From Eledone cirrhosa (lineage: Eukaryota), in contig OZ024752.1 of assembly GCA_964016885.1 (NCBI GenBank), forward strand, positions 9,858,001 to 9,922,000: 64,000 nucleotides of DNA. Direction: 5' to 3'. The position numbers and the translations under genes are program-made. How positions within the stretch are numbered: the stretch's first letter is position 1; each line of letters starts with the position of its first letter. The notes under the pieces are model-generated. The model searched no databases and was not told the origin of the DNA. It saw nothing but the letters and a program-made list of their open reading frames with translations. Of the stretch, positions 4,204 to 63,706 are shown piece by piece.

Positions 4204-4647
4204 AGGGTGGTGGATGGACAGTATCATTACAGAGTCGGACGCCATGCTTTTCAGCGTAGAGTTACGTCCCCTTACGGTCTGATTTCAAATCCCAGCGAGG
4301 TTAACTTTGCCTTTCATCCTAACCTGGTCGATAAAATAAGGTACCAATAACGTACTGGGGTCGATTTAATCGACTTTCTCATCCCCCCAAAATTACTGTC
4401 CTTATGCCTATACTAGAAACCCTTCTTCATGCGGTGGATTGGCAGTATTGGTAGAGAGTTGGACGCCATGCTTTGCAGCATAGAATTACGGCCCTTTACG
4501 GCCTGATTTCTAATCGCGCCAAGATTAACTTTGCCTTTCAGCCTAACCTGGTCTATAAAATAAAGTACCAGTAACATATTGGGTCGATTTAATTAACATT
4601 CCTCTCCCCTATATTACTGTCCGATTGCCTATACTATAAATCCTTAT
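4204..4647 (+). mobile_element. Two tandem Nin/Deu-domain SINEs (octopus OK-like family)
   Basis: Each copy has a ggtggattggcag-type head and aactttgcctttcatcc..ggtcgataaaataaagtaccag. Copies at 4204-4422 and 4431-4647. Confidence 0.85.
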
Positions 4648-6184: not shown

Positions 6185-6555
6185 TATATATATATATATA
6201 TAAACATACACACATATATGCATATATATATATATATGCACACACACACACACCCACACATATATGCACATATATATATATACATACATATATATATACA
6301 CATATATATAGACATACACACACATATATATATACACATATATAGAGACACATGCATGCATATATATATATATATATATATAGGAACCAGTAAGACCCCG
6401 ACAGCTGAGCTCAAGCCGTTTCGACGGCTAGCCGTCGAAACGGCTTGAGCTCAGCTGTCGGGGTCTTACTGGTTCCTATTACCCACTCTACTACCTCAAG
6501 TATTGAGTACTTTGGTGCGTTATGGTCCACCTGGTTCCTTACCACATTTCCTTCG

Positions 6556-6720: not shown

Positions 6721-6804
6721 ATGTATTTCCGTAGGAAAGGTAAAGGAAAGAAGAATGCTCTATGAATAGTACAGATCTTTATATAATAAACAACACAATA
6801 TAAT

Positions 6805-6878
6805 TATTCCATTACTCAAGGTTTCATGAAACTATGCGATTCTAAACGAAGGATCCAGTTCGTTCATCAGATGAAATA
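6805..6878 (-). ncRNA. Type I hammerhead ribozyme
   Basis: Minus strand reads tatttcat CTGATGA [stem II] GAAA ccttgag TA| atggaata. Stem I is 8 bp including one G-U pair. Confidence 0.7.
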
Positions 6879-6898
6879 TCCATGTTATCCATGACAGA

Positions 6899-6972
6899 TA
6901 TTTCATCTGGTGAACGAACTGGACATTTCTGTTAGAATCGTCTAATCTCGTGAAAACTTGAGTAATGGAATA
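6899..6972 (+). ncRNA. Type I hammerhead ribozyme, degenerate core (CTGGTGA)
   Basis: tatttcat CTGGTGA acga...tcgt GAAA acttgag TA| atggaata. Confidence 0.55.
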
Positions 6973-6995
6973 ATTATATTGTGTTATTTATTATA

Positions 6996-7044: not shown

Positions 7045-7534
7045 CGGCGATGATTTAGCTTTGCGAGGTTTTTGATATGAAATCGTGTGTCGAAACAAAT
7101 ATTGTTATACTTGGGGAGGGTCATATTTGTGTAATATTGCCAGAATTAATAACAGAACACACTCACTGTTTGGTTGGTTTTCGCTTTTCGCTTCTGTGTC
7201 TTTTATATCGGTAATCTAATTTATTCGATCCTCAATGTTGCTATTGACTGACCAACGGTCAAAAATAATACAGATACAATATAGACACAAACACATATAT
7301 ATATATAGTTTATCAAAGTTCTTTCGTTGCACATCTGCAACATCGTCAGTGGTGCTATTGTTTCCTCCCGTTGCATTGCATTTTCTACGCCATCTTTTCT
7401 CAACATTGAGGACCGAATAAATTAGATTACCGATATAAAAGACACAGAAGCGAAAAGTGAAAACCAACCAAACAGTGAGTGTGTTCTGTTATTAATTCTG
7501 GCAATATTACACAAATATGACCCTCCCCAAGTAT

Positions 7535-7542
<8 letters not shown>
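7043..7542. mobile_element. Family C element (minus strand, 7400 to 7043) plus an inverted copy of its 3' part, between (TA)n tracts
   Basis: Near-identical arms of about 145 bp at 7097-7240 and 7400-7542. Homologues at 15985-16230, 32845-32958 and 61880-62030. Confidence 0.8.
7311..7355 (-). ncRNA. Minimal hammerhead ribozyme (family C)
   Basis: Minus strand reads gcacca CTGACGA t gttgca-gatg-tgcaac GAAA gaac TT| tgata. Stem II is perfect; stem I is eroded. Confidence 0.6.
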
Positions 7543-19954: not shown

Positions 19955-22900
19955 TCATTCACTGCCTCTGTTTCTTTCGCTCCCCACATCACTCACTATT
20001 TTAAGCAAATGGGGGCCCACGCGCTGGCTGCCCCACGGCTCTGGAAGACAGAATAGAAAAAGTGCTTCTCCGAAGGATGGTGACTGAGACGCGTTGCAAG
20101 AGCCATTCTAGCTCGCGAGGTATCCAACTCCGTGCCAATGGGGGTGAGAAAGGAGGTTGTCCTAGGGTGTAATACACAAAAAGGTATCCCTCTGCTGGTA
20201 TTCAACCCCGTGTCAATGGTGTGGGAGGAGTAGGGAGGTGGCCCTAGGGTGTAGGACACAACAAGGTATCCATCCGCTGGTATTCAACTCCGTGTCGATG
20301 GGGGTGGGAAAGGAGGTGGCCCTCGGGTGTAGGACACAACAAGGTATCTATCTGCTGGTATTCAACTCCGTGTCGATGGGGTGGGAAAGGTGGTTGTCCT
20401 AGGGTGTAGGACACAACAAGGTATCTATCTGCTGGTATTCAACTCCGTGTCGATGGGGGTGGGAAAGGAGGTGGCCCTAGGGTGTAGGACACAACAAGGT
20501 ATCTATCTGCTGGTATTCAACCCCGTGTCGATGGGGGTGGGAAAGGAGGTGGCCCTAGGGTGTAGGACACAACAAGGTATCTATCCGCTGGTATTCAACT
20601 CCGTGTCGATGGGGGTGGGAAAGGAGGTGGCCCTAGGGTGTAGGACACAACAAGGTATCTATCCGCTGGTATTCAACCCCGTGTCAATGGTGTGGGAGGA
20701 GTAGGGAGGTGGTCCTAGGGTGTAGGACACAACAAGGTATCCATCCGCTGGTATTCAACTCCGTGTCGATGGGGGTGGGAAAGGAGGTGGCCCTAGGGTG
20801 TAGGACACAACAAGGTATCTATCCGCTGGTATTCAACTCCGTGTCGATGGGGGTGGGAAAGGAGGTGGCCCTAGGGTGTAGGACACAACAAGGTATCTAT
20901 CCGCTGGTATTCAACTCCGTGTCGATGGGGGTGGGAAAGGAGGTAGCCCTAGGGTGTAGGACACAACAAGGTATCCATCCGCTGGTATTCAACTCCGTGT
21001 CGATGGGGGTGGGAAAGGAGGTGGCCCTAGGGTGTAGGACACAACAAGGTATCTATCTGCTGGTATTCAACCCCGTGTCGATGGGGTGGGAAAGGAGGTG
21101 GCCCTAGGGTGTAGGACACAACAAGGTATCCATCCGCTGGTATTCAACTCCGTGTCGATGGGGGTGGGAGGAGTAGGGAGGTGGTCCTAGGGTGTAGGAC
21201 ACAACAAGGTATCTATCCGCTGGTATTCAACTCCGTGTCGATGGGGGTGGGAAAGGAGGTGGCCCTAGGGTGTAGGACACAACAAGGTATCTATCCGCTG
21301 GTATTCAACCCCGTGTCAATGGGGGTGGGAAAGGAGGTAGCCCTAGGGTGTAGGACACAACAAGGTATCTATCCGCTGGTATTCAACCCCGTGTCAATGG
21401 GGGTGGGAAAGGAGGTAGCCCTAGGGTGTAGGACACAACAAGGTATCTATCCGCTGGTATTCAACCCCGTGTCGATGGGGTGGGAAAGGAGGTGGCCCTA
21501 GGGTGTAGGACACAACAAGGTATCTATCTGCTGGTATTCAACCCCGTGTCGATGGGGTGGGAAAGGAGGTGGCCCTAGGGTGTAGGACACAACAAGGTAT
21601 CTATCTGCTGGTATTCAACCCCGTGTCGATGGGGTGGGAAAGGAGGTAGCCCTAGGGTGTAGGACACAACAAGGTATCCATCCGCTGGTATTCAACCCCG
21701 TGTCGATGGGGGTGGGAAAGGAGGTGGCCCTAGGGTGTAGGACACAACAAGGTATCTATCTGCTGGTATTCAACCCCGTGTCGATGGGGTGGGAAAGGAG
21801 GTAGCCCTAGGGTGTAGGACACAACAAGGTATCCATCCGCTGGTATTCAACCCCGTGTCGATGGGGGTGGGAAAGGAGGTGGCCCTAGGGTGTAGGACAC
21901 AACAAGGTATCTATCTGCTGGTATTCAACCCCGTGTCGATGGGGTGGGAAAGGAGGTAGCCCTAGGGTGTAGGACACAACAAGGTATCCATCCGCTGGTA
22001 TTCAACCCCGTGTCGATGGGGGTGGGAAAGGAGGTGGCCCTAGGGTGTAGGACACAACAAGGTATCTATCCGCTGGTATTCAACCCCGTGTCGATGGGGG
22101 TGGGAAAGGAGGTGGCCCTAGGGTGTAGGACACAACAAGGTATCTATCCGCTGGTATTCAACCCCGTGTCAATGGGGGTGGGAAAGGAGGTGGCCCTAGG
22201 GTGTAGGACACAACAAGGTATCTATCTGCTGGTATTCAACCCCGTGTCGATGGGGTGGGAAAGGAGGTGGCCCTAGGGTGTAGGACACAACAAGGTATCT
22301 ATCTGCTGGTATTCAACCCCGTGTCGATGGGGGTGGGAAAGGAGGTGGCCCTAGGGTGTAGGACACAACAAGGTATACATCCGCTGGTATTCAACTCCGT
22401 GTGGATGGGGTGGGAAAGGAGGTGGCCCTAGGGTGTAGGACACAACAAGGTATCTATCCGCTGGTATTCAACCCCGTGTCAATGGGGGTGGGAAAGGAGG
22501 TGGCCCTAGGGTGTAGGACACAACAAGGTATCTATCTGCTGGTATTCAACCCCGTGTCGATGGGGTGGGAAAGGAGGTGGCCCTAGGGTGTAGGACACAA
22601 CAAGGTATCTATCTGCTGGTATTCAACCCCGTGTCGATGGGGGTGGGAAAGGAGGTGGCCCTAGGGTGTAGGACACAACAAGGTATACATCCGCTGGTAT
22701 TCAACTCCGTGTGGATGGGGTGGGAAAGGAGGTGGCCCTAGGGTGTAGGACACAACAAGGTATCTATCTGCTGGTATTCAACCCCGTGTCGATGGGGGTG
22801 GGAAAGGAGGTGGCCCTAGGGTGTAGGACACAACAAGGTATACATCCGCTGGTATTCAACTCCGTGTGGATGGGGTGGGAAAGGAGGTGGCCCTAGGGTG

Positions 22901-23843
22901 TAGGACACAACAAGGTATCTATCCGCTGGTATTCAACCCCGTGTCAATGGGGGTGGGAAAGGAGGTGGCCCTAGGGTGTAGGACACAACAAGGTATCTAT
23001 CTGCTGGTATTCAACCCCGTGTCGATGGGGTGGGAAAGGAGGTGGCCCTAGGGTGTAGGACACAACAAGGTATACATCCGCTGGTATTCAACTCCGTGTG
23101 GATGGGGTGGGAAAGGAGGTGGCCCTAGGGTGTAGGACACAACAAGGTATCTATCCGCTGGTATTCAACTCCGTGTCGATGGGGGTGGGAAAGGAGGTGG
23201 CCCTAGGGTGTAGGACACAACAAGGTATCTATCCGCTGGTATTCAACTCCGTGTCGATGGGGGTGGGAAAGGAGGTTGTCCTAGGGTGTAGGACACAACA
23301 AGGTATCTATCCGCTGGTATTCAACTCCGTGTCGATGGGGGTGAGAAAGGGGGTAGCCCTAGGGTGTAGGACACAAGGTATCTATCTGCTGGTATTCAAC
23401 TCCGTGTCGATGGGGGTGGGAAAGGAGGTGGCCCTCGGGTGTAGGACACAAGGTATCTATCTGCTGGTATTCAACTCCGTGTCGATGGGGGTGGGAAAGG
23501 AGGTGGCCCTCGGGTGTAGGACACAAGGTATCTATCTGCTGGTATTCAACTCCGTGTCGATGGGGGTGGGAAAGGAGGTGGCCCTAGGGTGTAGGACACA
23601 ACAAGGTATCTATCCGCTGGTATTCAACTCCGTGTCGATGGGGGTGAGAAAGGAGGTGGCCCTCGGGTGTAGGACACAAGGTATCTATCTGCTGGTATTC
23701 AACTCCGTGTCGATGGGGGTGGGAAAAGAGGTGGGCCTAGGGTGTAGGACACCACAAGGTATCCATCTGCTGGTATTCAACTCCGAGTCGATGGGGGTGG
23801 GAAAGGAGGTGGCCCTAGGGTGTAGAACACCAGAAGTCTCCAA
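19955..23843 (-). mobile_element. CRE 3' fragment split by an internal 78-bp satellite
   Basis: Minus strand starts LETSGVL at 23843 and resumes RELEWLLQRVSVTILRR at about 20120-20065. Confidence 0.8.
20120..23830. repeat. 78-bp tandem array, about 47 copies
   Basis: Unit ggaggtggccctagggtgtaggacacaacaaggtatctatccgctggtattcaacYccgtgtcgatgggggtgggaaa, with shorter and longer variants. Confidence 0.97.
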
Positions 23844-24589: not shown

Positions 24590-24845
24590 AAGTGATTAAT
24601 CAAAAATAATATGGCACCAGCTGATATTAGTAAAACAAACATTTAATTGTATATTTCTCTTCTGTCACTCACTACAACTCTTGAGTATATGTATTCTCTA
24701 AAGTATTAATCGGCTGATTAACCTAATTTGCATACAGAGCGATTTTACAGTTGGCTTTGCCGAAAATTAAAAACAAAATTAGAATTTGGTTTTTCGCTCA
24801 AACATAGCGGATATGTAAATGCATTCCTGGGGTTATATCGAATTA

Positions 24846-25000
24846 CAATTGTTTCTACTTTTGACACAAAGCCAGCAATTACCCAGTGCATTACTGGTAC
24901 TTTATTTCATCGACCCCGTAAGGATGAAAGGCAAAGTTAACCTCGACGGGATTTCAACTCGCCGAGATTAACTTTGCTTTTCATCCTTACGGGGTCTATA
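24846..25000. mobile_element. Nin SINE insertion with an internal inversion and TSD
   Basis: Minus piece 24846-24960 plus plus-strand piece 24961-25000, with atatcgaa on both flanks. Confidence 0.7.
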
Positions 25001-25214
25001 AATATCGAACAATAATATTCGATTCATTTGTAAGCAAACAGCCTCATTACGTTATGTTTTTAGATGATGTTTGCCATCCTTTTGTTCTAACGGTGACCGA
25101 GAGAGAAACAATCGACAATATTTGTTGTGGGTTATTGCACTTTTTCAAGATTGTGTATCTTTTTTCTGTCTGACTCGTTAGAACTGTTGAGAATATAGAG
25201 TATTCTCTAAATAT

Positions 25215-25960
25215 ACTTCTTTGACGCTAAACACCGCAAGTTGCAGACTACGCATCAACATGTGATATCTCTCTCCACAAAGTTCGATCACCAACAGCAG
25301 ACTATTAAAGAGCAAAGATCAAGTCCAGTCCATAAGTTGACATTGTCAAGTCATCGTTTTGGCTGCCGGCCTCTGCTTCTCTTACCAGCCAACCTTCCTT
25401 CCAGGCATAACTTACTCACACCACGAGTTGATATTTTTATATGACCATATAGTTTGAGTACTCTTGACTTGACAATTGATGTAATTGGTCTATGTTTGGT
25501 AATGTTGAGCAGCTCACTGATACAGATACGGTCGCTGAGCCACTTCCCAGTCATAAGTCTCATGATGTGGTTCTGGAATGTAGAGAGCTTTTGAAGTGAC
25601 CTTGTTGTCCAATTACCACAGTCAAGACCATATAACACAACTGGTAGGATGTAAGTATCGAAGATTTTAGCCTTCAAATGATAGGAAACTCGTTTTGATG
25701 TTAGTACTTCCTTGTTTTCGTTGAAAGCTGCCCAACCTAGAGCGATTCCATATTGCTCAGCAACCATTCAATTGTTGTTTGATTATAGTTTCTTACCGAG
25801 ATATACAAACTCCGTAACTTGAACAATTTGCTGGTGGTAGATTGTGAGTTAGATATTAGCACAGTTGTCATACTCTTTGTTTTGGAGATGTTGATGTGTA
25901 AGCCAGCCTCTAGCGAATGTTTGACCAGTACATTCAGAAAGTCTTGCAGATCGTATACCT
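25215..25960 (-). pseudogene. RTE-clade LINE 3' fragment
   Basis: FVYLG, WAAFNENKEVLTSKRVSYHLKAKIFDTYILPVVLYG..LKLYGHI..LEGRLAGKRSRGRQPKR. Confidence 0.9.
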
Positions 25961-28128: not shown

Positions 28129-28242
28129 AGTTGAAAAAAAATGAAAACGAAATTTCATTTCTCACTCTTAGTATGGCACTTACTTAAATGTAAGTATGTA
28201 TGTATACGTACATACATATATGTATACAGACGTACAGTAGCA

Positions 28243-28310
<68 letters not shown>

Positions 28311-28477
28311 CACACATATGCATACAGGTATACATACATATATGCACGCATCAGTTTAGCCGACGTTTATTATAACGCAGCTTTGTTCGCTTGTTTGTCA
28401 GCAAATCGAACAGCCTGAATTTATGCCATACGGTGTTAAGGCAAACACGTCACCTTTTTGTTCAACACTGACACAGG

Positions 28478-28522
28478 AACGATGTACTAGTTTCAAGCTT
28501 GTTAGCTATCATCAGCACCGTT
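28478..28522 (-). ncRNA. Minimal type I hammerhead ribozyme
   Basis: Exact mirror of 28892-28936. Confidence 0.8.
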
Positions 28523-28891
28523 TACCCATCTGCCAGATAGTTGAACGTTCGAAAGTATATACTTTCCTTATGAAAATTAACGGCTGAGCAGCCTAATTTG
28601 CATATTGAGTGAGTTAAATCGGTCAGGCATACCGAAAACGACAAGTTGAAAAAAAATGAAAACGAAATTTCATTTCTCACTCTTAGTATGGCTCATACAT
28701 ACATACTTACATTTAAGTAAGTGCCATACTAAGAGTGAGAAATGAAATTTCGTTTTCATTTTTTTCAACTTGTCGTTTTCGGTATGCCTGACCGATTTAA
28801 CTCACTCAATATGCAAATTAGGCTGCTCAGCCGTTAATTTTCATAAGGAAAGTATATACTTTCGAACGTTCAACTATCTGGCAGATGGGTA

Positions 28892-28936
28892 AACGGTGCT
28901 GATGATAGCTAACAAGCTTGAAACTAGTACATCGTT
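28892..28936 (+). ncRNA. Minimal type I hammerhead ribozyme
   Basis: aacggtg CTGATGA t-agct-aaca-agct-t GAAA ctag TA| catcgtt. Stem I is 7 bp, stem III is the palindrome ACTAGT, and the cleavage triplet is GUA. Confidence 0.8.
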
Positions 28937-29094
28937 CCTGTGTCAGTGTTGAACAAAAAGGTGACGTGGTTGCCTTAACACCGTATGGCATAAATTCAGG
29001 CTGTTCGATTTGTTGACAAACAAGCGAACAAAGCTGCGTTATAATAAACGTCGGCTAAACTGATGCGTGCATATATGTATGTGTACCTGTATGC

Positions 29095-30164: not shown

Positions 30165-31135
30165 ATTTCTTCGAATTGAGATATCACAGCACCGATATTA
30201 TGGCCATGTGGTTAGAATGCCTCAGGAAAGAAACTGTGAATTGAGAGATCATTGTTCCGATATTATGGCCATGTGGTTAGAATGTCTCAGGAAAGAAACT
30301 GTGAATTGAGAGATCATTGTTCCGATATTATGGCCATGTGGTTAGAATGTCTCAGGAAAGAAACTGTGAATTGAGAGATCATTGTTCCGATATTATGGCC
30401 ATGTGGTTAGAATGTCTCAGGAAAGAAACTGTGAATTGAGAGATCATTGTTCCGATATTGTGGCCATGTGGTTAGAATGTCTCAGGAAAGAAACTGTGAA
30501 TTGAGAGATCATTGTTCCGATATTGTGGCCATGTGGTTAGAATGTCTCAGGAAAGAAACTGTGAATTGAGAGATCATTGTTCCGATTTTATGGCCATGTG
30601 GTTAGAATGCTTCAGGAAAGAAACTGTGAATTGAGAGATCATTGTTCCGATATTATGGCCATGTGGTTAGAATGTCTCAGGAAAGAAACTGTGAATTGAG
30701 AGATCATTGTTCCGATATGATGGCCATGTGGTTAGAATGTCTCAGGAAAGAAACTGTGAATTGAGAGATCATTGTTCCGATATTATGGCCATGTGGTTAG
30801 AATGTTTCAGGAAAGAACTGCTGGAGAGTCACTCCAAGTAGAGCTGCTACTTCTCCGAATTAAGAGATCACAGCTCCAATACTATGGGCATGCTGTTAGA
30901 ATGTCTCAGGGAAGAATCGCTGGACATATTTTACGGGCAAAACTAACCGGCAGGAGACCCAGGGGTAGACCCTGAGCAAGATAGTTGGATAACACCCAGG
31001 AGCTTGGCTGGTCTTGATTGTGGATCCAGCCGGATTAGTTGAAGACGGCTGGTACTTAGTGGACCCGCAAGAAGACATGTTTGCAAACTCTGTCCCCATG
31101 ACCCTCTCAAAAATAAAGGGGTAAGAAGTAGAATG
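30165..31135 (+). mobile_element. RTE-derived 3' fragment preceded by a 65-bp tandem array
   Basis: LLLRIKRSQLQYYGHAVRMSQGRIAGHILRAKLTGRRPRGRP; homologous to 51604-51966. Confidence 0.85.
30172..30818 (+). repeat. 65-bp tandem array, 10 copies
   Basis: Unit gaattgagagatcattgttccgatattatggccatgtggttagaatgtctcaggaaagaaactgt. Confidence 0.95.
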
Positions 31136-31502: not shown

Positions 31503-31978
31503 AGCTCATCGGGCCGGTGCTTATCCCGGTTTCATGGCGTGAAGCGACTGAGAGTACACGACTCCACCCTGGACAGGACGCCCGGCCATCGTAGGGTTAA
31601 ACCCCCAGCTATTTACTGGCGCTTATTCCGGTTTCATGGCGTGAAGCGACTGAGAGTACACGACTTCACCCTGGACAGGACGCCCGGCCATCGTAGGGTT
31701 AAACCCCCATCTATTTACTGGTGCTTATCCCGGTTTCATGGCGTGAGGCGACTGAGAATACACGACTCCCCCCTGGACAGGACGCCCGTCCATCGTAGGG
31801 TTAAACCCCCTGCTATTTACTGGCACTCATGTTTTTCAGCTGAGTATACTAGAGCAACGTGTAATGAAGTGTTTTACTCAAGAACACAACACAACACAAC
31901 ACACAACCCGGGAAATGAACCCACGACATGACGATCGTAGCTCCAACACCCTTACCACTAGGTCACGTGCCTCCACGT
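31503..31978 (-). mobile_element. tRNA/CORE-like SINE with a triplicated 102-bp body segment
   Basis: Head at about 31978; units start at about 31516, 31618 and 31720. Confidence 0.85.
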
Positions 31979-32642: not shown

Positions 32643-32869
32643 CTGTTGATTAGCCTAGAAGTACATTAATGTGTTTCATGATCTAAGAGAACTTAAGCAA
32701 ACACCGACAACAATTTACCTGAAGGAATATTTCGATATAATAGTGAATCTATAGATGTGAAAGTACCCGTGATAAATAGTCGGGAAATGATCCTCAGACT
32801 AAGTCATTTATTTTGATGTATTTTACATTCAGAATAAATAAATAAGCAATACAACGGGAGGAAACAAAA

Positions 32870-32913
32870 CATCACTGATGATGTCACAATTCTGTAGCGA
32901 AAGATCTCTGAGA
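32870..32913 (+). ncRNA. Minimal hammerhead ribozyme (family C)
   Basis: catca CTGATGA t gtcaca-attc-tgtagc GAAA gatc TC| tga. Stem III is the palindrome AGATCT. Confidence 0.6.
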
Positions 32914-32955
32914 AATTATATTTATATCTATATTTTTAACTGTTGGTCAATCAAT

Positions 32956-33046
32956 GGTTTCTTATATAGGCATAAGGCCAGAAATTATTGTGGAGGGGAA
33001 AACTCGATTAAATCTACCCCAGTGCGTGACTGGTATTTTATTTTAT
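32956..33046 (-). mobile_element. Nin SINE 3' fragment
   Basis: ggcataaggccagaaatt..accccagtgcgtgactggtattttatttta. Confidence 0.7.
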
Positions 33047-33232
33047 TGGCAGTGGAGACTTCTGGTGTCCTTGGCCCTAGGGCTACCTCCCTACTCACCA
33101 CCATAGGCGCTGAGATGGCCAGCCGCAGGTGTGAGCCTCGCGAGCTGGAATGGCTTTTCCAGCGCGTCTCCCTTGCCGTCCTCCGAGGAAACGCCTTCTC
33201 CATTCTGTCCGTCGGGGCTGTGGGGAGGCCAC
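33047..33232 (+). mobile_element. CRE-clade 3' fragment
   Basis: LAVETSGVLGPRATSLLTTIGAEMASRRCEPRELEWLFQRVSLAVLRGNAFSIL. Confidence 0.85.
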
Positions 33233-34714
33233 CAATATTATTGACTGACTTGTCATTTCATCAGTCAGATGTTCTAATGGTTCTATATATATATACAAGC
33301 ACTTTTATATTTTTTATACTTTACTGAAATCATGAAAATACTCGAACTGTATTCTAAGAGCCGAAAAAGGTAAGTTTATTTTTGTCACTGCTTAATATTC
33401 AGTTATGTCATAACTGAAATGTTAGTAGATTTCACTAACGGTTTACACCAAATCAAATTAACTTAATAATTTTAACCGGTCAACCATTATTAATATCAAA
33501 TTAGCACTGCACAGTTGAGTGATAGTTATTTGCTTTAGAGAATTGTAATGTATATACATGTCCTCCTGTAAATTCCGAGCAGAAATATATTCAGATCTGA
33601 AATTTAATGACAGTTATGTCAAGTAATACTATGTTACATACGGCTCTTAAGAGATATTTATATTTCTGTTACATAATTCCAATTCTTCATCGTGTGTATG
33701 TAAAGAAACGTTGCTTTCTTTAATGGTTGCATTCCTTGCTGCCAATATTTACTCGAATTAACCAAGAAGACCTGTCTCGATCTGGCATGGGTTGTTTTAC
33801 TTTAAATTACTTTGGCATGTTTCTAAGATGACAGAAATAAACACTGTGGAAAGTAAAGATATACTTTTATATTGGAAGAAACTATTTTGCAAACACAACA
33901 ATATTTTTCCAATGATATTTTTTTATATGTAAGTCTTCGTGTTCATATCAGTGTTACTAAAATTAGTATTGTTAGGTATTCTTACTTTTTTTTCTTCAAA
34001 GAACTGCACAAACATACATAACTTTCAATATATATATGGTTCACCTTTTCTTATCTTACATTTAGCATACACATATAACTTATATGTGTGTAAGTTTGTG
34101 TGTATAAGTGTGTGTGTGTGTTTGTATATGTGAATGTGTTTGTGAGATTATACATGCTGACGTGTCATCAATAGATATGAGCTGCAACAATCACACGAGA
34201 AATAAACAATGCAAATGTTGTCACGCAACTACGATCGATGTTGTTCGGGTTTATTTCCAAATGTTAAGTACTTAGGAACCGAGATTATAATGATTTTAAT
34301 GGTAAAACAAGTGAGGAGAGAGCTACTTTTGATAATGCTTAATATTAAAAAAAGCAAGGAGAGAGTGCTTTGTCTAACAAAGGCTCTGTCGGTTCAGATA
34401 GGTATTTTCATTATTCAAAAAATAGAGCATTGTGTTCGTAGAGATAACTTACATGAGTGTAATCTTTATGCCCGTAAGTTAAAATTGCATTCACTGTATT
34501 AGTAAAGGTGGAAGTGAATCATAGCACATGGGAATGTAATTGATTGTTTCTCTGATCAAAACTAGTCCTATCTCTGGCTGGCCAAATAGATTATATATAA
34601 ACCTTATATAGCATTGAGTCAGCTTTCTTACGTTTGTTAACACAGTTGTACATATGTTCTTGTCGAATTACAGCTGCTTGAGTAGCATAAACAGGTTAAA
34701 CTTATGAAGAGTCC

Positions 34715-36556: not shown

Positions 36557-39500
36557 TTTATATATATAATATATGGTAGCCTAGTACTATATAATATATG
36601 GTAGTCTAGTGCTATATAATATATGGTAGTCTAGTACTATATAATATATGGTAGTCTAGTACTATATAATATATGGTGGTCTAGTACTATATAATATATG
36701 GTAGTCTAGTACTATATAATATATGGTAGTCTAGTACTATATAATATATGGTGGCCTAGTACTATATACTATATGGTAGTCTAGTACTATATAATAGATG
36801 GTAGTCTAGTACTATATAATATATGGTAGTCTAGTACTATATAATATAAGGTAGTCTAGTACTATATAATAGATGGTAGTCTAGTACTATATAATATATG
36901 GTAGTCTAGTACTATATAATATATGGTAGTCTAGTACTATATAATATATGGTAGTCTAGTACTATATAATATATGGTGGTCTAGTACTATATACTATATG
37001 GTAGTCTAGTACTATATAATATATGGTAGTCTAGTACTATATAATATATGGTGGCCTAGTACTATATAATATAAGGTAGTCTAGTACTATATAATATATG
37101 GTAGTCTAGTACTATATAATATAAGGTAGTCCAGTACTATATAATATATGGTAGTCTAGTACTATATAATATATGGTGGTCTAGTACTATATAATATATG
37201 GTAGTCTAGTGCTATATAATATATGGTAGTCTAGTGCTATATAATATATGGTGGTCTAGTACTATATAATATATGGTAGTCTAGTACTATATAATATATG
37301 GTAGCCTAGTACTATATAATATATGGTAGTCTAGTACTATATAATATATGGTAGTCTAGTACTATATAATATAAGGTAGTCTAGTACTATATAATAGATG
37401 GTAGTCTAGTACTATATAATATATGGTAGTCTAGTACTATATAATATATGGTAGTCTAGTACTATATAATATATGGTAGTCTAGTACTATATAATATATG
37501 GTGGTCTAGTACTATATACTATATGGTAGTCTAGTACTATATAATATATGGTGGTCTAGTACTATATATGGTAGTCTAGTACTATATCATATATGGTGGT
37601 CTAGTACTATATAATATATGGTGGCCTAGTAATATATAATATATGGTAGTCTAGTACTATATAATATATGGTAGCCTAGTACTATATAATATATGGTAGT
37701 CTAGTACTATATAATATATGGTAGCCTAGTACTATATAATATATGGTAGTCTAGTACTATATATGGTAGTCTAGTACTATATAATATATGGTGGTCTAGT
37801 ACTATATAATATATGGTAGTCTAGTACTATATAATATATGGTAGTCTAGTACTATATATGGTAGTCTAGTACTATATAATATATGGTGGTCTAGTACTAT
37901 ATAATATATGGTAGTCTAGTACTATATAATATATGGTAGCCTAGTACTATATAATATATGGTAGTCTAGTACTATATATGGTAGTCTAGTACTATATAAT
38001 ATATGGTGGTCTAGTACTATATAATATATGGTAGTCTAGTACTATATAATATATGGTGGCCTCTTACTATATAATATATGGTAGCCTAGTACTATATAAT
38101 ATATGGTAGTCTAGTACTATATATGGTAGTCTAGTACTATATAATATATGGTAGTCTAGTACTGTATAATATATGGTAGTCTAGTACTATATAATATATG
38201 GTACCCTAGTACTATATAATATATGGTAGACTAGTACTATATAATATATGGTAGTCTAGTACTATATAATATATGGTACCCTAGTACTATATAATATATG
38301 GTAGACTAGTACTATATAATATATGGTAGTCTAGTACTATATAATATATGGTACCCTAGTACTATATAATATATGGTAGACTAGTACTATATAATATATG
38401 GTAGTCTAGTACTATATAATATATGGTAGTCTAGTATATATATATATAATATATGGTAGTCTAGTACTATATAATATATGGTAGTCTAGTACTATATAAT
38501 ATATGGTAGTCTAGTACTATATAATATATGGTAGTCTAGTACTATATATGGTAGTCTAGTGCTATATAATATATGGTGGCCTAGTACTATATAATATATG
38601 GTGGTCTAGTACTATATAATATATGGTAGTCTAGTGCTATATAATATATGGTAGTCTAGTACTATATAATAGATGGTAGTCTAGTACTATATAATATATG
38701 GTAGTCTAGTACTATATAATATATGGTAGTCTAGTACTATATAATATATGGTGGTCTAGTACTATATAATATATGGTAGTCTAGTACTATGTAATATATG
38801 GTGGCCTAGTACTATATAATATATGGTGGCCTAGTACTATATAATATATGGTAGTATAGTACTATATAATATATGGTAGTCTAGTACTATATAATATATG
38901 GTAGTCTAGTACTATATAATATATGGTAGTCTAGTGCTATATAATATATGGTAGTCTAGTACTATATAATATATGGTAGTCTAGTACTATATAATATATG
39001 GTAGTCTAGTATATATATATATATATAATATATGGTAGTCTAGTACTATATAATATATGGTGATCTAGTACTATATAATATATGGTAGTCTAGTACTATA
39101 TAATATATGGTGGCCTAGTACTATATAATATATGGTGGCCTAGTACTATATAATATATGGTAGTCTAGTACTATATAATATATGGTAGTCTAGTACTATA
39201 TAATATATGGTAGTCTAGTGCTATATAATATATGGTAGTCTAGTACTATATAATATATGGTAGTCTAGTACTATATAATATATGGTAGTCTAGTACTATA
39301 TAATATATTGTGGCCTAGTACTATATAATATATGGTGGTCTAGTACTATATAATATATGGTAGTCTAGTGCTATATAATATATGGTAGTCTAGTACTATA
39401 TAATATATGGTAGTCTAGTACTATATAATATATGGTAGTCTAGTACTATATAATATATGGTGATCTAGTACTATATAACATATGGTGGTCTAGTACTATA

Positions 39501-41057
39501 TAATATATGGTAGTCTAGTACTATATAATATATGGTGGTCTAGTGCTATATAATATATTGTGGCCTAGTACTATATAATATATGGTGGTCTAGTACTATA
39601 TAATATATGGTAGTCTAGTGCTATATAATAGATGGTAGTCTAGTACTATATAATATATGGTAGTCTAGTACTATATAATATATGGTAGTCTAGTACTATA
39701 TAATATATGGTGGTCTAGTACTATATAATATATGGTAGTCTAGTACTATATAATATATGGTGGCCTAGTACTATATAATATATGGTGGCCTAGTACTATA
39801 TAATATATGGTAGTCTAGTACTATATAATATATGGTAGTCTAGTACTATATAATATATGGTAGCCTAGTACTATATAATATATGGTAGTCTAGTACTATA
39901 TAATATATGGTAGCCTAGTACTATATAATATATGGTGGTATACTACTATATAATATATGGTAGTCTAGTACTATATAATATATGGTGGTCTAGTACTATA
40001 TAATATATGGTAGTCTAGTACTATATAATATATGGTAGTCTAGTACTATATAATATATGGTAGTCTAGTACTATATAATATATGGTAGCCTAGTACTATA
40101 TAATATATGGTAGTCTAGTACTATATAATATATGGTGGTCTAGTACTATATAATATATAGTAGTCTAGTACTATATAATATTTGGAGGTCTACTATATAT
40201 ATATAATATATGGTGGCCTAGTACTATATAATATATGGTAGTCTAGTTCTATATAATATATAGTACTCTAGGACTATATAATATATGGTAGCCTAGTACT
40301 ATATAATATATGGTAGTCTAGTACTGTATAATATATGGTAGTCTAGTACTATATAATATATGGTGGTCTAGTACTATATAATATATGGTAGTCTAGTGCT
40401 ATATAATATATGGTAGTCTAGTACTGTATAATATATGGTAGTCTAGTTCTATATAATATATGGTAGTCTAGTACTGTATAATATATGGTAGTCTAGTTCT
40501 ATATAATATATGGTAGTCTAGTACTATATAATATATGGTAGTCTACTTCTATATAATATATGGTAGTCTAGTACTATATAATATATGGTAGTCTAGTACT
40601 ATATAAAATATGGTAGTCTAGTACTATATAATATATGGTGGTCTAGTGCTATATAATATATGGTAGCCTGGTACTATATAATATATAGTAGTCTAGTGCT
40701 ATATAATATATGGTAGTCTAGTACTATATAATATATGGTAGTCTAGTACTATATAATATATGGTAGTCTAGTACTATATAATATATGGTAGTCTAGTGCT
40801 ATATAATATATGGTAGTCTAGTACTATATAATATATGGTAGTCTAGTACTATATAATATATGGTAGTCTAGTACTATATAATATATGGTAGTCTGGTACT
40901 ATATAATATATGGTAGTCTGGTACTATATAATATATGGTAGTCTAGTACTATATAATATATGGTAGTCTGGTACTATATAATATATGGTAGTCTAGTACT
41001 ATATAATATATGGTAGTCTGGTACTATATAATATATGGTAGTCTAGTACTATATATA
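36557..41057. repeat. 25-bp satellite, about 180 copies
   Basis: Unit ggtagtctagtactatataatatat, with 20-bp deletion variants. Confidence 0.97.
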
Positions 41058-43188: not shown

Positions 43189-43527
43189 TAAGCCGTTAGA
43201 ATTTAAACGGGCCATATCAGGCCAGAATTCTCCCACCTTTTTCTGTTCAAACTGGCTGTAACCGGCCACTCATAATGATGATAAGGTATTGTTCTCGAAA
43301 TAAGTAATATCAAAATCCATAGATTCGATATTATGTGAGATATTATGTTAGATAAAGCCTTTACTACGAAAATATAATAGTAAATATAGAATAATTGTTT
43401 CTACATTTGGGACAAGGCCAGCAATTAAGCCAGTATATTACTGGTGCATTATTTTATCGACCCCGTAAGGATGAAAGGTAAAGTTAACCTCGGTAAATAT
43501 AGAATGATGTAAACGGTAAAGGGTTAA
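43189..43527 (+). mobile_element. piggyBac-like MITE carrying a nested Nin SINE fragment (43393-43492, minus)
   Basis: Ends ttaagccgttag..aaac and gtaaacggtaaagggttaa. SINE is flanked by TSD gtaaatatagaat. Confidence 0.6.
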
Positions 43528-44617: not shown

Positions 44618-45034
<417 letters not shown>

Positions 45035-45076
45035 ATGATATTAAATAAATGGAAACTATATTTATAAAACCATATT

Positions 45077-45141
45077 TATTTTATTATATATATTTCAAGG
45101 GCAACCAAGACACTATTGGTGCGCTTTCATCAGATAAAATA
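45077..45141 (-). ncRNA. Type I hammerhead ribozyme
   Basis: Minus strand reads tattttat CTGATGA aagcgcaccaa-tagtgtc-ttggttgccctt GAAA tatata TA| ataaaata. Stem I is a perfect 8 bp. Confidence 0.7.
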
Positions 45142-45275
45142 CAAAGTTTGTTTTATAAATAGAGACGTACCTATGAAAATCATATCTTATCGGTTGGAGA
45201 TTCACTATACAGTGAATTTCCAAGCGATAAGGTATGATCTTCATGGGTACGTCTCTATTTATAAAACAAACTTTG

Positions 45276-45341
45276 TATTTTATCTGATGAAAGCGCACCT
45301 AATGGTGTCTTGGTTTCCCTTGAAATATATATAATACAATA
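45276..45341 (+). ncRNA. Type I hammerhead ribozyme (mirror copy)
   Basis: Same fold, with one mismatch in stem I and extra mismatches in stem II. Confidence 0.6.
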
Positions 45342-45640
45342 AATATAGTTTTATAAATATAGTTTCCATTTATTGAATATCATGGAATATTTACTCCAGT
45401 AACTTGTTGAGTGCTCTAAATCAGTTGTAAACATTTATGTTTATCGGTCTTCCCTCTCATATATATATATATATATATATACCTTGATTAAATCTTAACC
45501 ATCTACCATGTCAGGGTTTGTCATGTATCATTTTATTTTATATGATGAGGACGTACTGTTCAACTTAATTCAGTGCCTCTGAAATATGTATAATAAAATT
45601 TAATTGATCACAAGAATATCTATTTTTGTTAATATTCGAA

Positions 45641-51603: not shown

Positions 51604-51966
51604 AGAGTCACTCTAGGTAGAACCGCTACTTCTCCGAATTGAGAGAACACAGCTCCGATATTATGGGCATGTCGTTAGAATGTCTCAACACAGCAAAGAA
51701 TCGCTGGATAGATTTTACGGGCCAAATCAACCGGCAGGTGACCCAGGAGTAGATCCCCAACCAAGATGGTTGGATAACGTCCATGAGCTTGGCTGGACTG
51801 GCTTGACGGTTCAACCGGAACTGTTGGAGAGGGTTACTTCGGACAGGAGCCGCTGGAAGCTGTGTCTCTGCCTCAACGACCCTCTCGGGAATAAGTGGGC
51901 ACAGAAGAAGAAGAAGAAGAAGAAGAAGAAGAAGAAGAAGAAGAAGAAGAAGAAAAAAAAGAAGAA
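51604..51966 (+). mobile_element. RTE-derived 3' fragment with an (AAG)n tail
   Basis: LLLRIERTQLRYYGHVVRMS..PRWLDNV..DRSRWK, then (aag)n. Confidence 0.85.
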
Positions 51967-52164
51967 CTGATAATATCCACGTGGAGAACCAGTGTCGAAA
52001 GTTATTATATCGACATGTCTAGTGGATAAAGTTACCTTCGAAGGGACATAGTGCAGTGAGTTCGGAAATGTAGAACATCTCATGAAAAATGAGAGTTGTT
52101 GTAGAACTAAAGAGAACTGTGGGTAATTATATCTAAAATGTCTAAATCATGTATCAAGCCAGAA

Positions 52165-53004: not shown

Positions 53005-53182
53005 TAATTGTTTCTACTTTAGGCACAAGGCCAGCAATTACCCAGTGCATTACTGGTACTTTATTTTATCGACCCCGTAAGGATGAAAGGCAAAGTCAAC
53101 CACGGCGGGATTTGAACTCAGATTGTAAAGGGACGTAACTATGCTGGAAAGCATGCGTCCGACCCTCTACACATACTGCCAA
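53005..53182 (-). mobile_element. Nin/Deu-domain SINE
   Basis: Reverse copy of the family consensus. Confidence 0.85.
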
Positions 53183-53498
53183 ATGATGGCTTCCATGGTT
53201 ACTATACAGGATGTAAACATAAGCAAACACTACTTCTACAAATAGTCAACTGAAGACATCATATATATATATAAATATATATATAATATATAATATATAT
53301 ATATAATATATAATATATATATATAATATATAATATATATATATAATATATTATATAATATATATATAATATATATTTATAATATATATATTATATATAT
53401 ATAATATATATATATAATATATATAATATATAATATACAATATATACTATATAATATATATATATAATATATATATATAATATATAATATATATATAT

Positions 53499-53752
53499 AA
53501 TCCGCCTCTTCATTGCTGTAGTGGAGTCTGTGATGCTGTACGGGTCTGAGACTTGGACACTGACCAAGAAACTCACTCCGATGGTGGATGGGTGCTACAC
53601 GAGAATGCTGAGGATGGCTCTGAACATTAATCAGTATACACTGGGGATGAAAAACTCAGAGCTGTACGGGAGCCTCCCAAAAGTCAGCTCAAAAGTGACA
53701 CAGAGGAGACTTAGGTTAGTTGGACATGCTCACCGACATCCAGAGTTGACAC
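53499..53752 (+). pseudogene. RTE-like LINE fragment between TA tracts
   Basis: IRLFIAVVESVMLYGSETWTLTKKL..DGCYTRMLRMALNI..SELYGSLPKVS..RRLRLVGHAHRHPE. Confidence 0.85.
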
Positions 53753-53859
53753 CTACATATATATATACACAAATAAAATACAGAGTTACTAACTCATATT
53801 GATACCCTGCAATTAACAAACTCAAAGTATAAATGCTGAGCATTATATAATAATATATA

Positions 53860-53960
53860 CCGAGGTTAACTTTGCCTTTCATCCTTTCGGGGTCGATAAA
53901 ATAAAGTACCAGTAAACTACTGGGTATTTGGTGGCCTTGTGCCAAAAGTAGAAACAATTA
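53860..53960 (+). mobile_element. Truncated Nin SINE
   Basis: Flanked by attatataataatata on both sides. Confidence 0.85.
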
Positions 53961-54129
53961 TATAATAATATATGTAGAAATAAACACAGTGAATTCTGTA
54001 TCTAAAATTAGGAGGGTAGAAAATACCACATTTCTTTTATATATTTAACCTGAATCATACGTAAGACATACACATTTTTTCATGAGATATAAAAATGTTT
54101 TCATATACAGACCGTATCAATAACTATTT

Positions 54130-54220
54130 CATCTCTCTGACAGATTAGAGATTTAATCGATTTCGCCCTGTAAATTGTGTTTGTAACAGATAATCCGTAG
54201 GCTTTCCTCAGCGAGAGATG
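54130..54220 (-). ncRNA. Type I hammerhead ribozyme with an extended stem III
   Basis: Minus strand reads catctctcg CTGAGGA aagcc...gggc GAAA tcgatta-aatctc-taatctg TC| agagagatg. Confidence 0.7.
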
Positions 54221-54471
54221 GAATCAAATGAAACAAAACCCATGTAACTACAAATCACAGGGGTGAATATCACACCTCGTGTGTTGGACGTTATACGTGG
54301 TGTGAGTGGATATGCTAAAAATAATAGCCTTATTACACTCAACTTATAAGCTCACCTAGTTAGGGAGCCGAAATACAAATAAAATACAGAGTTACTAACT
54401 CATATTGATACCCTGCAATTAACAAACTCAAAGTATAAATACTGAGCATTATATAATAATATACCATCAGA

Positions 54472-54660
54472 TAGGGCGGTGGATTGGCAGTATCGGTAGA
54501 GGGTCGGACGCCATGCTTTCCAGCATAGTTACGTCCCTTTACCATCTGAGTTCAAATCCCGCCGAGGTTGACTTTGCCTTTCATCCTTACGGGGTCGATA
54601 AAATAAAGTACCAGTAATGCACTGGTAATTGCTGGCCTTGTGCCTAAAGTAGAAACAATT
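54472..54660 (+). mobile_element. Full-length Nin SINE
   Basis: Near-consensus copy with the same flanking duplication as the 53860 copy. Confidence 0.9.
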
Positions 54661-54908
54661 ATATAATAATATATGTAGAAATAAACACAGTAAATTCTGT
54701 GTCTAAAATTACGAGGGTAGAGAATACAACATTTGTTTTATATATTTTATTTGTATTTCGGCTGCCTAACTAGGTGAGCTTATACGTTGAGTGTAATAAG
54801 GCTATTATTTCTAGCATATCCACTCACACCGCATATAACGTCCAACGCACGAGGTGTGATATTCATCCCTGTGAATTGTAGCTACATGTGTTTCGTTTCA
54901 TTTGATCC

Positions 54909-54998
54909 CATCTCTCGGTGAGGAAAGTTACGGATTATCTGTTACAAACACAATTTTCAGAGCGAAACAGATTAAATCTCTAATCTGTCCGAGAGATG
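54909..54998 (+). ncRNA. Type I hammerhead ribozyme (mirror copy, C3G)
   Basis: catctctcg GTGAGGA ... GAAA cagatta-aatctc-taatctg TC| cgagagatg. Perfect 9-bp stem I and 7-bp stem III, with a GUC triplet. Confidence 0.7.
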
Positions 54999-55201
54999 AA
55001 ATGGTTATTGATACGGTCTGTATATGAAAACATTCTTATATCTTACGTATGATTCAGGTTAAATATATAAAACATTTGTGGTATACTCTACCCTCGAAAT
55101 TTTAGACACAGAATTCACTGTGTTTATTTCTACATATATTATATATATATATATATATAATATATGTAGAAATAAACACAGTGAATTCTGTGTCTAAAAT
55201 T

Positions 55202-55272
<71 letters not shown>

Positions 55273-55359
55273 GTGTGTGTATATGCATATATGTATATGT
55301 ATATATATTTATATATGTATATGTATATATATATATGTATATGTATATGTATATATATG

Positions 55360-55460
<101 letters not shown>

Positions 55461-55626
55461 GTCCCAAGGCTCTGTTACCATCAACACTATAAACACAGAG
55501 CTGGCATATCTAAAAACTGACCAACTGCCTGATGAGGTCATAGCCATTCAATGACTATCATTGAAATATATATATCAGCAAATAAAGGATTATTAGTTCA
55601 TGCAATAGACTTATGTTTCGTCACTG
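55461..55626 (+). mobile_element. TA-embedded element with a hammerhead-like core (55526-55580), family I
   Basis: tgc CTGATGA ggtcatagccat-tca-atgactatcatt GAAA tatatata TC agca, then AATAAA. Confidence 0.55.
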
Positions 55627-55971: not shown

Positions 55972-57279
55972 GTATATATATATGTCAAGTAAGTATGTTT
56001 TGAAACATTGAGCAGGTTTGAAATTAGAAAATAGAATAGCTTTCTCCGTATTTTTGACTAAAGACATTTCTAGCCTGATAATGGGATTTAGAACCATCAG
56101 ATAAATGGAAAAAGATGAGTATTGACGTACAGTACTCATCCAGTGTTTGAGGTTTGGATCCATATTTTATATATTTATACTTAATACACAAAACATGGTA
56201 GAAAATCTACTTAGTTTTAATTAGTCTATGGGAAACCCTATGTAGTTAGTAGCAGCGAAGTGTTCACCTAGAGAGTACCTTGACAGCCCGTGACGCAAAT
56301 ACCCGATGATGTATACGTACTAAATTTATTTGTTTTAGCAATGTCAATCGATGTACAATTAAACTACTTCAGATTAGATGAATATGTTGTTTTTTTTTCA
56401 CTGTTTTTGCTGTCATTGTCTTCTCTATGATGTACAACCATTGTCCATGTTTCCTGTTCGTGACCCTTTCAAAATCGAAATATTTACTATTCTGAAACAA
56501 TGAATTCATTTCGTGTGACATGTAGTGTTGTAGGATGTAACTGAGATAAATCTACTTATGATGCTACTGTAAAAATATGGCATCGATATATATATATATA
56601 TATATATAAATACATATAGAATGGAAAGCGAAAAATTAGTGATGCATCGGAACTCAATTTAATGTGTGTTACAATTGTTTCCCCGGCGAACAGCTCGAGG
56701 TGCGATCTGTGTGTGGATCGACCTGTCTCTGGATTTACAGGTTCCTCGGATACGTCTATTGATTTCGGTGCATATCCTAATTGAGCATAGAGTGCTCAAC
56801 CGGCCTACCGCCTATGGAAGCATCTTAGCTATCATTAGAATATATATATATATATAGAGAGAGAGAGAAAAAAGTCAGGAACCAGACGGCTGAGCTACGG
56901 CTCTTTCGACAGTCACTTTTTTTCAGATAACATTTTTTTATCTCTTATAAAATTTAGTCTTAAATTAAAAACTTATTTTTGGTATTAGAAGGATTAGTGA
57001 TAAGAAATATAATGGGGAAGGCAACTTGCAAAGCTGGGGGTAGAGCGCAGGTTTAGGGTAAACATATATTTTTCGCTGTGGGAGCAGCAACATTTTAACG
57101 TTTGGAAAATTACCTATTGCTAAGGGCCACCCTAATATACATATATCTGTGTGTGGTTGACAGCTGATGGAAATGACTACTCGGTATTGAGTAATACATT
57201 TATATATGTATATATACAGCCTTGCCTTCATATTTCTCCTTGCTCCCTTTTTCTCATTGTATTTGTATGTAAACAAGAT

Positions 57280-61023: not shown

Positions 61024-61447
61024 AGGGCGGTGGATTGGCAGCCTCGGTTGGGTGTCAGGCACCATACTTTGCAGCATGGAGTTATGGCCCTTTCTGTTCT
61101 GAGTTCAAAACCCCCCGAGGAAAGCTTTGCCTTTCATCGTTATGGGGTCGATAAAATAAAGCACCAGTAATGTACTGGGGTCGATTTAATCGACTTTTCC
61201 CTCCCCTCCCCCCTAAATTACTGGCATTGTGCCTATACTATAACTCATTATTACGACCGGTGGATTGCCAGTATCGGTAGAGGGACGGACGCCATGCTTT
61301 GCAGCAAAGAGTTACGGCCCTTTATGGTCTGAGTTCAAATCCCGCCTAGGTTAACTTTGCCTTTCATCCTTACGAGGTCGATAAAATAAAGTACCAGTAA
61401 TGTACTGGAATAATTGCTGGCCTTGTGCCAAAAGTAGAAATAATTAT
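61024..61447 (+). mobile_element. Two tandem Nin SINEs
   Basis: Copies at 61024-61252 and 61257-61447. Confidence 0.85.
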
Positions 61448-63531: not shown

Positions 63532-63706
63532 TTTAATGATAGGGACCCCAGTCCTATCATCTCATTTCTACAGCTGAGTAAACTGGAACAACGTGAAATA
63601 AAGTGTCTTGTCCAAGGAAACAACACATCACATGGTCCGAGAATTGAACTCACAACCTTTCGATTGCAAGCCCAATGCTCTAACCACTAAGCCATGCGCC
63701 TTCACA
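63532..63706 (-). mobile_element. tRNA/CORE-like SINE
   Basis: Reverse complement of 14549-14722. Confidence 0.85.

Follow-up and report, generated by a model that had tools for sequence, protein, structure and literature searches.

Our analysis indicates that the locus at 53769–55201 of the window (the whole 64,000-nucleotide stretch of Eledone cirrhosa DNA analysed here) is likely an ordinary, decayed and non-coding insertion of the Penelope-like element (PLE) type: a hammerhead unit of ~490 bp would have been laid down in (TA)n by a PLE reverse transcriptase acting in trans, and the SINE found in both tandem units would be a passive nested insertion without a role. Such a PLE-type origin, counted jointly with the alternatives of two SINE insertions and of a DNA-level duplication, is in our judgement very probable. 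The layout of the locus is ordinary within the window, and its sole unusual trait is the 8-bp stem III of its hammerhead. An initial annotation of this DNA was largely right about what is present, overstated the ribozyme, and offered a retrozyme reading that is unsupported at the locus.

Architecture of the element

The tandem-plus-inverted layout proposed in the initial annotation is seen as a 606-bp unit, a truncated second unit and a head-to-head inverted arm, ordered on the + strand as A, S1, B, A′, nine extra bases, S2, B′, inverted arm, TA run, 52-nt fold-back and (TA)n (Table 1). The period of 606 bp (53769 versus 54375) agrees with that description, and the ~490 bp given for the unit without its SINE correspond to 491 bp once S1 and one copy of the duplication are subtracted. 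The inverted arm (54743–55149) matches 53959–54386 and ends, as claimed, at the SINE site, which is TA-rich. Hammerhead sense is − in the direct arm and + in its inverted counterpart; the arms therefore stand head to head with their 3′ ends directed outward into TA repeats; both outer ends of the element are in (TA)n. The inverted arm runs 7–12 nt past the A/B junction, and the template would therefore have been multimeric or circular. Three features had been missed: the perfect 52-nt fold-back, a 21-nt duplication within unit 1, and the near-identity of S2 to the SINE at 53005–53182 (S0).

The unit has a GC content of 32–34%, and a six-frame search for coding potential gave no ORF, with none of at least 100 aa inside it. 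A blastn search (word size 7) returned no further copies of the element within the window; comparison with bacterial and archaeal genomes gave no match to the unit, as expected, and serves only as a check for stray host DNA. A 5′ splice-site-like motif lies at 54352–54358 (− strand), near the start of B in hammerhead sense; introns are present in some PLE repeats.

Sequence comparison suggests that young local events, or in the case of the fold-back an assembly error, touched the locus. A and A′ show 1 difference in 89 nt (P 0.009 at a rate of 7.3%); CpG decay as the cause of this low divergence was rejected, since only 4 of 29 B changes are of the CpG type. Perfect (100%) fold-back palindromes of ~100 nt, very young or artefacts, lie beside or around TA runs at 6380–6479 and 55097–55202.

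Table 1. Features of the element and its flanks (positions in the window)
Feature	Position	Strand	Remarks
SINE S0, neighbouring copy outside the element	53005–53182	−	4/172 sites from S2
(TA)n-type microsatellite, left of element	53261–53501	.	
LINE ORF remnant (endonuclease/RT, C-terminal) and short TA run	53503–53758	+	Flank, outside the element
Segment A, 3′ end of direct arm (“tail”-like extension)	53769–53857	−	Upstream copy of SINE duplication at 53842–53857
SINE S1, 5′-truncated, tRNA-type, antisense to hammerhead	53860–53956	+	17-nt duplication plus 1 base
Segment B of unit 1	53957–54374	−	Downstream duplication copy 53957–53972; 21-nt local duplication 54064–54084
Type I hammerhead, unit 1	54130–54220	−	Core intact (54211–54205, GAAA 54164–54161, C17 at 54139)
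Segment A′ of unit 2	54375–54463	−	Duplication copy 54448–54463
Nine extra bases separating duplication from S2	54464–54472	+	
SINE S2, full-length	54473–54657	+	16-nt duplication plus 9 extra bases; sister is SINE 53005–53182
B′, truncated body of unit 2, hammerhead absent	54658–54747	−	Meets inverted arm via ~5 nt of microhomology (54743–54747)
Inverted arm (final ~12 nt of A and all of B)	54743–55149	+	3′ end enters TA run at SINE site
Type I hammerhead, inverted arm	54909–54998	+	9-bp stem I, 7+1-bp stem III, GUC (C17 at 54989), C3 to G
Fold-back, 52 nt	55150–55201	−	0 differences from inverted-arm end; very young or assembly artefact
(TA)n microsatellite, right of element	55202–55460	.	

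Hammerhead motifs

The ribozyme was first described as having a 9-bp stem I, a 7-bp stem III and a GUC triplet. These stems are present in the inverted arm, but the core there is not intact (C3G); unit 1 has the intact core, but its stems I and III are broken by a G·A mismatch at pair 1.1 and by two mismatches at the base of stem III. The described hammerhead is a mosaic of the two copies: no genomic copy unites the stems with an intact core, and neither combines a CUGANGA/GAAA/NUH core with complete stems I and III in the same molecule. The topology is nevertheless above chance, as none of 3000 shuffles of the region and none of 40 shuffles of the window reproduced it under criteria of at most one core mismatch and of at least 9 (stem I) and at least 7 (stem III) contiguous pairs, thresholds that were picked after the hit was seen and applied with dinucleotides preserved only approximately.

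Stem II gains its G10.1–C11.1 pair only if two A following A9 stay unpaired, which leaves a stem of 3–4 bp with a loop of ~30 nt. The computed probability of this pair is 0.25 in unit 1 and 0 in the inverted arm; two in-silico chimeras give 0 and 0.10. The constrained hammerhead fold lies 1.5–5.5 kcal/mol over the minimum, and the minimum-energy state of the best chimera is without stem II. A single double change within stem II is possibly compensatory, at a place where the alignment is ambiguous. Searches of Rfam returned no hammerhead family at the gathering score, nor among the 34 matches obtained with E values of up to 10; sub-threshold microRNA-type matches on the perfect hairpin were rejected. 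A CTGATGA at 55529, directly right of the element, was likewise discarded as a hammerhead, its stem I partner being absent.

In a PLE hammerhead, C3G abolishes cleavage (PMC11167929, sections available to us). Both genomic hammerheads are predicted to be inactive, and the monomer cleavage suggested for the ribozyme is unsupported, with C3G in one copy, broken stems in the other and stem II unfolded in the chimera. The motif had also been set apart from minimal PLE hammerheads. In metazoan PLE motifs, the available sections of PMC4209133 describe a helix III that is minimal, absent or a tiny palindrome, and a single base left unpaired after A9; a long helix III is reported there for PLE hammerheads of fungi and protists, and one of these cleaves as a monomer. 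The 7+1-bp stem III is unusual for an animal, yet precedented, because fungal and protist PLE hammerheads have a long helix III. Long-stem hammerhead variants may be covered by Lunse et al. 2017.

Comparison with Penelope-like elements

The locus displays a partial tandem (pseudo-LTR), an adjacent inverted 5′-truncated copy, a type I hammerhead (both copies damaged) and an AT-rich/(TA)n target. The standard PLE layout, as set out in the sections of PMC8557442 available to us, consists of a partial tandem, an adjacent inverted 5′-truncated copy, a one-sided tail and a (TA)n bias. With EN+ PLEs (Neptune, Naiad and Penelope/Poseidon; PMC8557442 and PMC11167929, in part) the locus shares the partial tandem, the inverted 5′-truncated copy, two 3′ ends offset by a tail-like stretch and (TA)n, as well as a type I hammerhead 150–180 nt from the 3′ end. 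Naiads of octopus and bobtail squid prefer (TA)n, with core halves 35–50 nt apart, in the excerpted supplement of PMC8557442; the gap between core boxes here, 40 nt in unit 1 and 39 nt in the inverted arm, is like that of some Naiads. PLE hammerheads in the same portion of PMC4209133 share with ours the type I form and a G10.1–C11.1 pair with unpaired bases after A9, and include dual motifs on opposite strands 100–700 bp apart, compared with ~780 bp at this locus; they differ from the present motif in its helix III of 7+1 bp, two bases after A9, stem II of 3–4 bp and loop of ~30 nt.

Three observations stand against the PLE reading: the locus has no PLE ORF, no sequence match to a known PLE was seen in the Craig supplement, and its A extension offsets the two 3′ ends by 73–89 nt without the SINE, whereas the one-sided tail of PLEs is 30–40 bp. 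In these respects, and in the SINE nested in the unit, it is unlike EN+ PLEs. The RT plus GIY-YIG ORF that marks a PLE is absent, and because there is no ORF we file the locus as a PLE-type non-coding remnant rather than an autonomous PLE. Of four short family motifs, the two longer ones were unmatched in the available part of the Craig supplement (PMC8557442), and the other two matched coding regions of other entries. Identity with Naiad was considered and rejected: the 3′ ends of Naiad_Obim, Naiad_Ovul and Naiad_Omin, as excerpted from the source, look unrelated to the unit by eye.

Hammerhead-core motifs also occur in four further inverted repeats of the window, all next to (TA)n (6782–6995, 7099–7542, 28142–29070 and ~45033–45390). 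These repeats belong to different families, with core-box spacers of 14, 16, 30–31 and possibly 38 nt, and the one near 28.7k has an additional partial copy. The core pattern occurs 10 times in the window against 1.8 expected.

The SINE and its copies

The SINE is of the tRNA-derived type, with interspersed short copies, target duplications and a tRNA-like head; it is ~185 nt long and has box A/B-like motifs by eye, an ATT-type tail and a head hairpin. ARAGORN found no tRNA in it. The octopus OK type is a candidate family, which shares the length of ~185 nt, box A/B-like motifs, ATT-type tail and target duplications. The name “Nin SINE” used in the initial annotation does not fit: by eye, the SINE body does not resemble the Nin domains shown in the available part of the PMC4758252 supplement; one Nin motif had 8 matches against 6.2 expected, none of them in a SINE copy, and another had 0. 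Motif look-ups in the accessible portions of published SINE supplements gave no useful match.

Thirteen of the 15 copies in the window were aligned, two short ones (63.2k and 33.0k) being left out. A clear target duplication was seen in 4 of the 13 examined, all starting ATT/TTATT-like, and this motif occurs once on the + strand within the 176 nt of unit 2. Five of the 15 copies begin at positions 73–90. S43k (43391–43493) shares its truncation base with S1 and is flanked by a separate 13–16-nt duplication, so the end of S1 requires no deletion. The start of S1 coincides with the foot of the head hairpin, and this hairpin folds in either orientation; the shared truncation base is undecisive because such a foot would favour a stalled SINE insertion and a skip alike.

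Several other copies have features of their own. Head-to-tail dimers at 4204–4620 and 61024–61447 each have one target duplication by eye; a second subfamily is suggested by the longer 3′ part of the copies at 4204, 4431 and 61024. The copy at 24844–25002 has a 5′ inversion beginning near the head/body boundary, where other copies truncate. A tRNA-like head at 63629–63697 (− strand) scores slightly over the Rfam gathering threshold and likely belongs to another SINE family.

Relationship of S1 and S2

Both units carry the SINE between the same 16-nt duplication, as originally noted, one copy truncated (S1) and one full (S2), with 8 substitutions in 96 columns; their 5′ junctions differ. S2 departs from S0 in 1 of 95 S1-spanning columns and in 4 of 172 overall, and from the next nearest copy, S14.3k, in 4 of 110. 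S0 is physically the nearest SINE outside the element; no target duplication was found around it, and 6 of the 9 extra bases of S2 occur beside its 5′ junction. S1 and S2 have no exclusive derived site in common. Four derived changes are common to S2 and S0 alone, two of them within the S1 span, where S1 has the majority base.

The SINE phylogeny, which had been put forward as a check on the passenger idea, argues against its simple form: a clade of S1 and S2 is rejected on the shared columns (p-AU 0.0065) and borderline on all columns (0.072). A passenger survives only with later local conversion. A clade of S1, S2 and S0, a group defined after the data were seen, is not rejected (p-AU 0.055 on shared columns, 0.28 on all columns). 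The trees, built from 13 of the 15 copies, have no starred branch. Judged by these alignments, S1 and S2 are not sisters. The divergence of S1 from S2 (7/83) does not differ from that of B from the inverted arm (29/397; Fisher p 0.65), and the stem leading to S2 and S0 (0.033) matches half of the element divergence, the size expected of decay private to S2.

As separate observations on the S2 5′ junction (54463–54473), an 11-mer with the extra bases recurs at 56093–56103, 1.6 kb downstream; a 6-mer is found at the S0 5′ junction (53184–53189); and the extra bases show a likeness to a stretch inside S2.

Origin of the locus

The choice first posed, between an RNA that carried a SINE as passenger and two SINEs that hit one site, was the right question, but the passenger is viable only with later local conversion. 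In that form, a SINE inserted once into the donor, copied along and later altered locally, we regard it as about evenly poised between true and false. In the proposed sequence of events, a PLE endonuclease would nick a TA microsatellite on both strands; the reverse transcriptase would then extend the two ends by copying a tandem transcript, starting internally once at the end of A and once at the TA-rich site, giving outward 3′ ends that differ by the A “tail”; the two 5′-truncated products would be joined via ~5 nt of microhomology; S1 would lose its hairpin head by a skip or a deletion, and S2 and the neighbouring S0 would be homogenised; and both hammerheads, predicted inactive, would have decayed afterwards. 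The available sections of PMC11167929 report that a PLE protein in vitro nicks at ATT and extends both strands, with two internal start sites bounding the tail. The two outward 3′ ends offset by A fit this behaviour, with A longer than 30–40 bp.

A single insertion is supported by the same nick and orientation in both units and by a SINE divergence equal to that of the element; the absence of a duplication around S0 and the 6 extra bases that it has in common with S2 also speak for it, and the available part of PMC8230782 reports conversion among SINEs that lie within ~10 kb of each other. Against it, S1 and S2 lack an exclusive derived site and S1 keeps the majority base at both sites derived in S2 and S0. 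The model requires two or three unobserved local events, and it leaves the similarity of A and A′ unexplained without a further conversion or template switch.

Alternatively, the PLE-type insertion may have been SINE-free on landing, and two SINE lineages later hit the same ATT-rich nick of both units, a history that we hold to be possible, though short of probable. It takes the placement of S2 at face value, with S0 and not S1 as its sister (1/95 versus 8/96 differences), and the clean and distinct 5′ junctions of S1 and S2; the recurrence of the S1 truncation base in S43k and the clustering of copy starts agree with it. So do the ATT/TTATT-like starts of the copies with clear duplications, the motif being single on the + strand of unit 2, and the inverted arm and fold-back end at this same site, which may be nick-prone. 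A second hit on one nick within 176 nt has, however, a chance of ~1 in 100 (an estimate from 15 copies per 64 kb), and precise parallel insertions are rare for Alu (PMC8230782, in part); that the sister of S2 is also the nearest copy adds a coincidence of ~1 in 12.

In a second alternative, a simple PLE-type inverted repeat gained one SINE, and the direct arm was then duplicated at the DNA level by unequal exchange or break repair. This would account for the common nick without a SINE-bearing donor, and young local changes are at hand in A/A′ (1/89) and the fold-back (0/52); B, B′ and the inverted arm are, however, near-equidistant (6.8%, 7.3% and 8.2%), so that the duplication would be about as old as the insertion, and conversion between S2 and S0 would be required all the same. 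We find it improbable. The weights that we give to the single insertion, to two insertions and to this duplication are rough products of odds, judgements rather than computed probabilities.

The retrozyme reading supposes a self-cleaving, circularised RNA of ~490–700 nt that carried the SINE and was reverse-transcribed round the circle. Non-LTR retrozymes, described as non-autonomous PLE derivatives in the available sections of PMC7229834 and bioRxiv 10.64898/2026.07.22.740005, resemble the locus in having a type I hammerhead within a unit that is non-coding, poor in GC and a few hundred bp long; the unit is non-coding and, at 32–34%, below the 45% GC expected of them. The crossing of the A/B junction, the long stem III, the possibly compensatory change in ambiguously aligned stem II, and the proposal of circles as PLE templates (PMC4209133, in part) are also consistent with this reading. 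The criterion for a retrozyme, however, is a run of two or more consecutive tandem units that include a complete type I hammerhead (bioRxiv 10.64898/2026.07.22.740005, sections available to us). Here unit 2 stops at 54747, before the hammerhead, the direct tandem has only one, and there is therefore no retrozyme array; an inverted arm is present, which is a PLE trait. Moreover, in the accessible part of PMC11167929, a PLE used uncleaved RNA as substrate in vitro and its hammerhead mutants inserted normally. With the layout being standard for a PLE, a “retrozyme-like RNA” is not needed, and we consider it very improbable.

That tandem and inversion are assembly artefacts is scarcely credible: PLE structures are said to trouble assemblies (PMC8557442, in part) and the 52-nt fold-back is 100% identical within a TA run, but arms ~7% apart with independent indels are not expected from mis-assembly of one sequence, and only the fold-back is suspect.

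Significance

Animal genomes abound in PLE remnants that carry hammerheads, and with five such inverted structures in the window this locus by itself matters little. Described animal PLE hammerheads are without a long stem III and need dimers or protein help; should the family consensus be active, it would offer a clean test case for monomer cleavage by an animal PLE hammerhead. The SINE in both units is a marked template and could reveal whether a PLE tandem arises from a single RNA copied in a single event. A literature search, with subscription papers and Repbase outside its scope, listed no paper about PLE hammerheads of cephalopods or about a pLTR that contains a SINE. In a farther-reaching scenario, which we regard as unlikely, the locus would belong to an animal family of PLE-derived, non-coding mobile RNAs with an 8-bp stem III that cleave as monomers; a sub-lineage would spread an antisense SINE as cargo, and S1 would have arisen by a template jump at the SINE hairpin between two SINE-bearing transcripts.

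Genomic setting

The window is repeat-rich, animal-type DNA with numerous (TA)n tracts. A protein search with the left flank (53503–53758) gave 106 matches with a top identity of 79–81%; most contain PF00078, and several additionally PF14529/PF03372. Further putative remnants of LINE C-terminal ORFs lie at 2081–2464, 25351–25767, 32842–33327 and 51617–51970; a Pfam scan of four nearby ORF remnants, which covered the first three of these, gave a single weak match, to DUF6451 at 25354–25767. Satellite or minisatellite arrays occupy 20119–23830, 36563–41055, 30173–30817 and 31519–31824, with periods of 78, 25, 65 and 102 bp.
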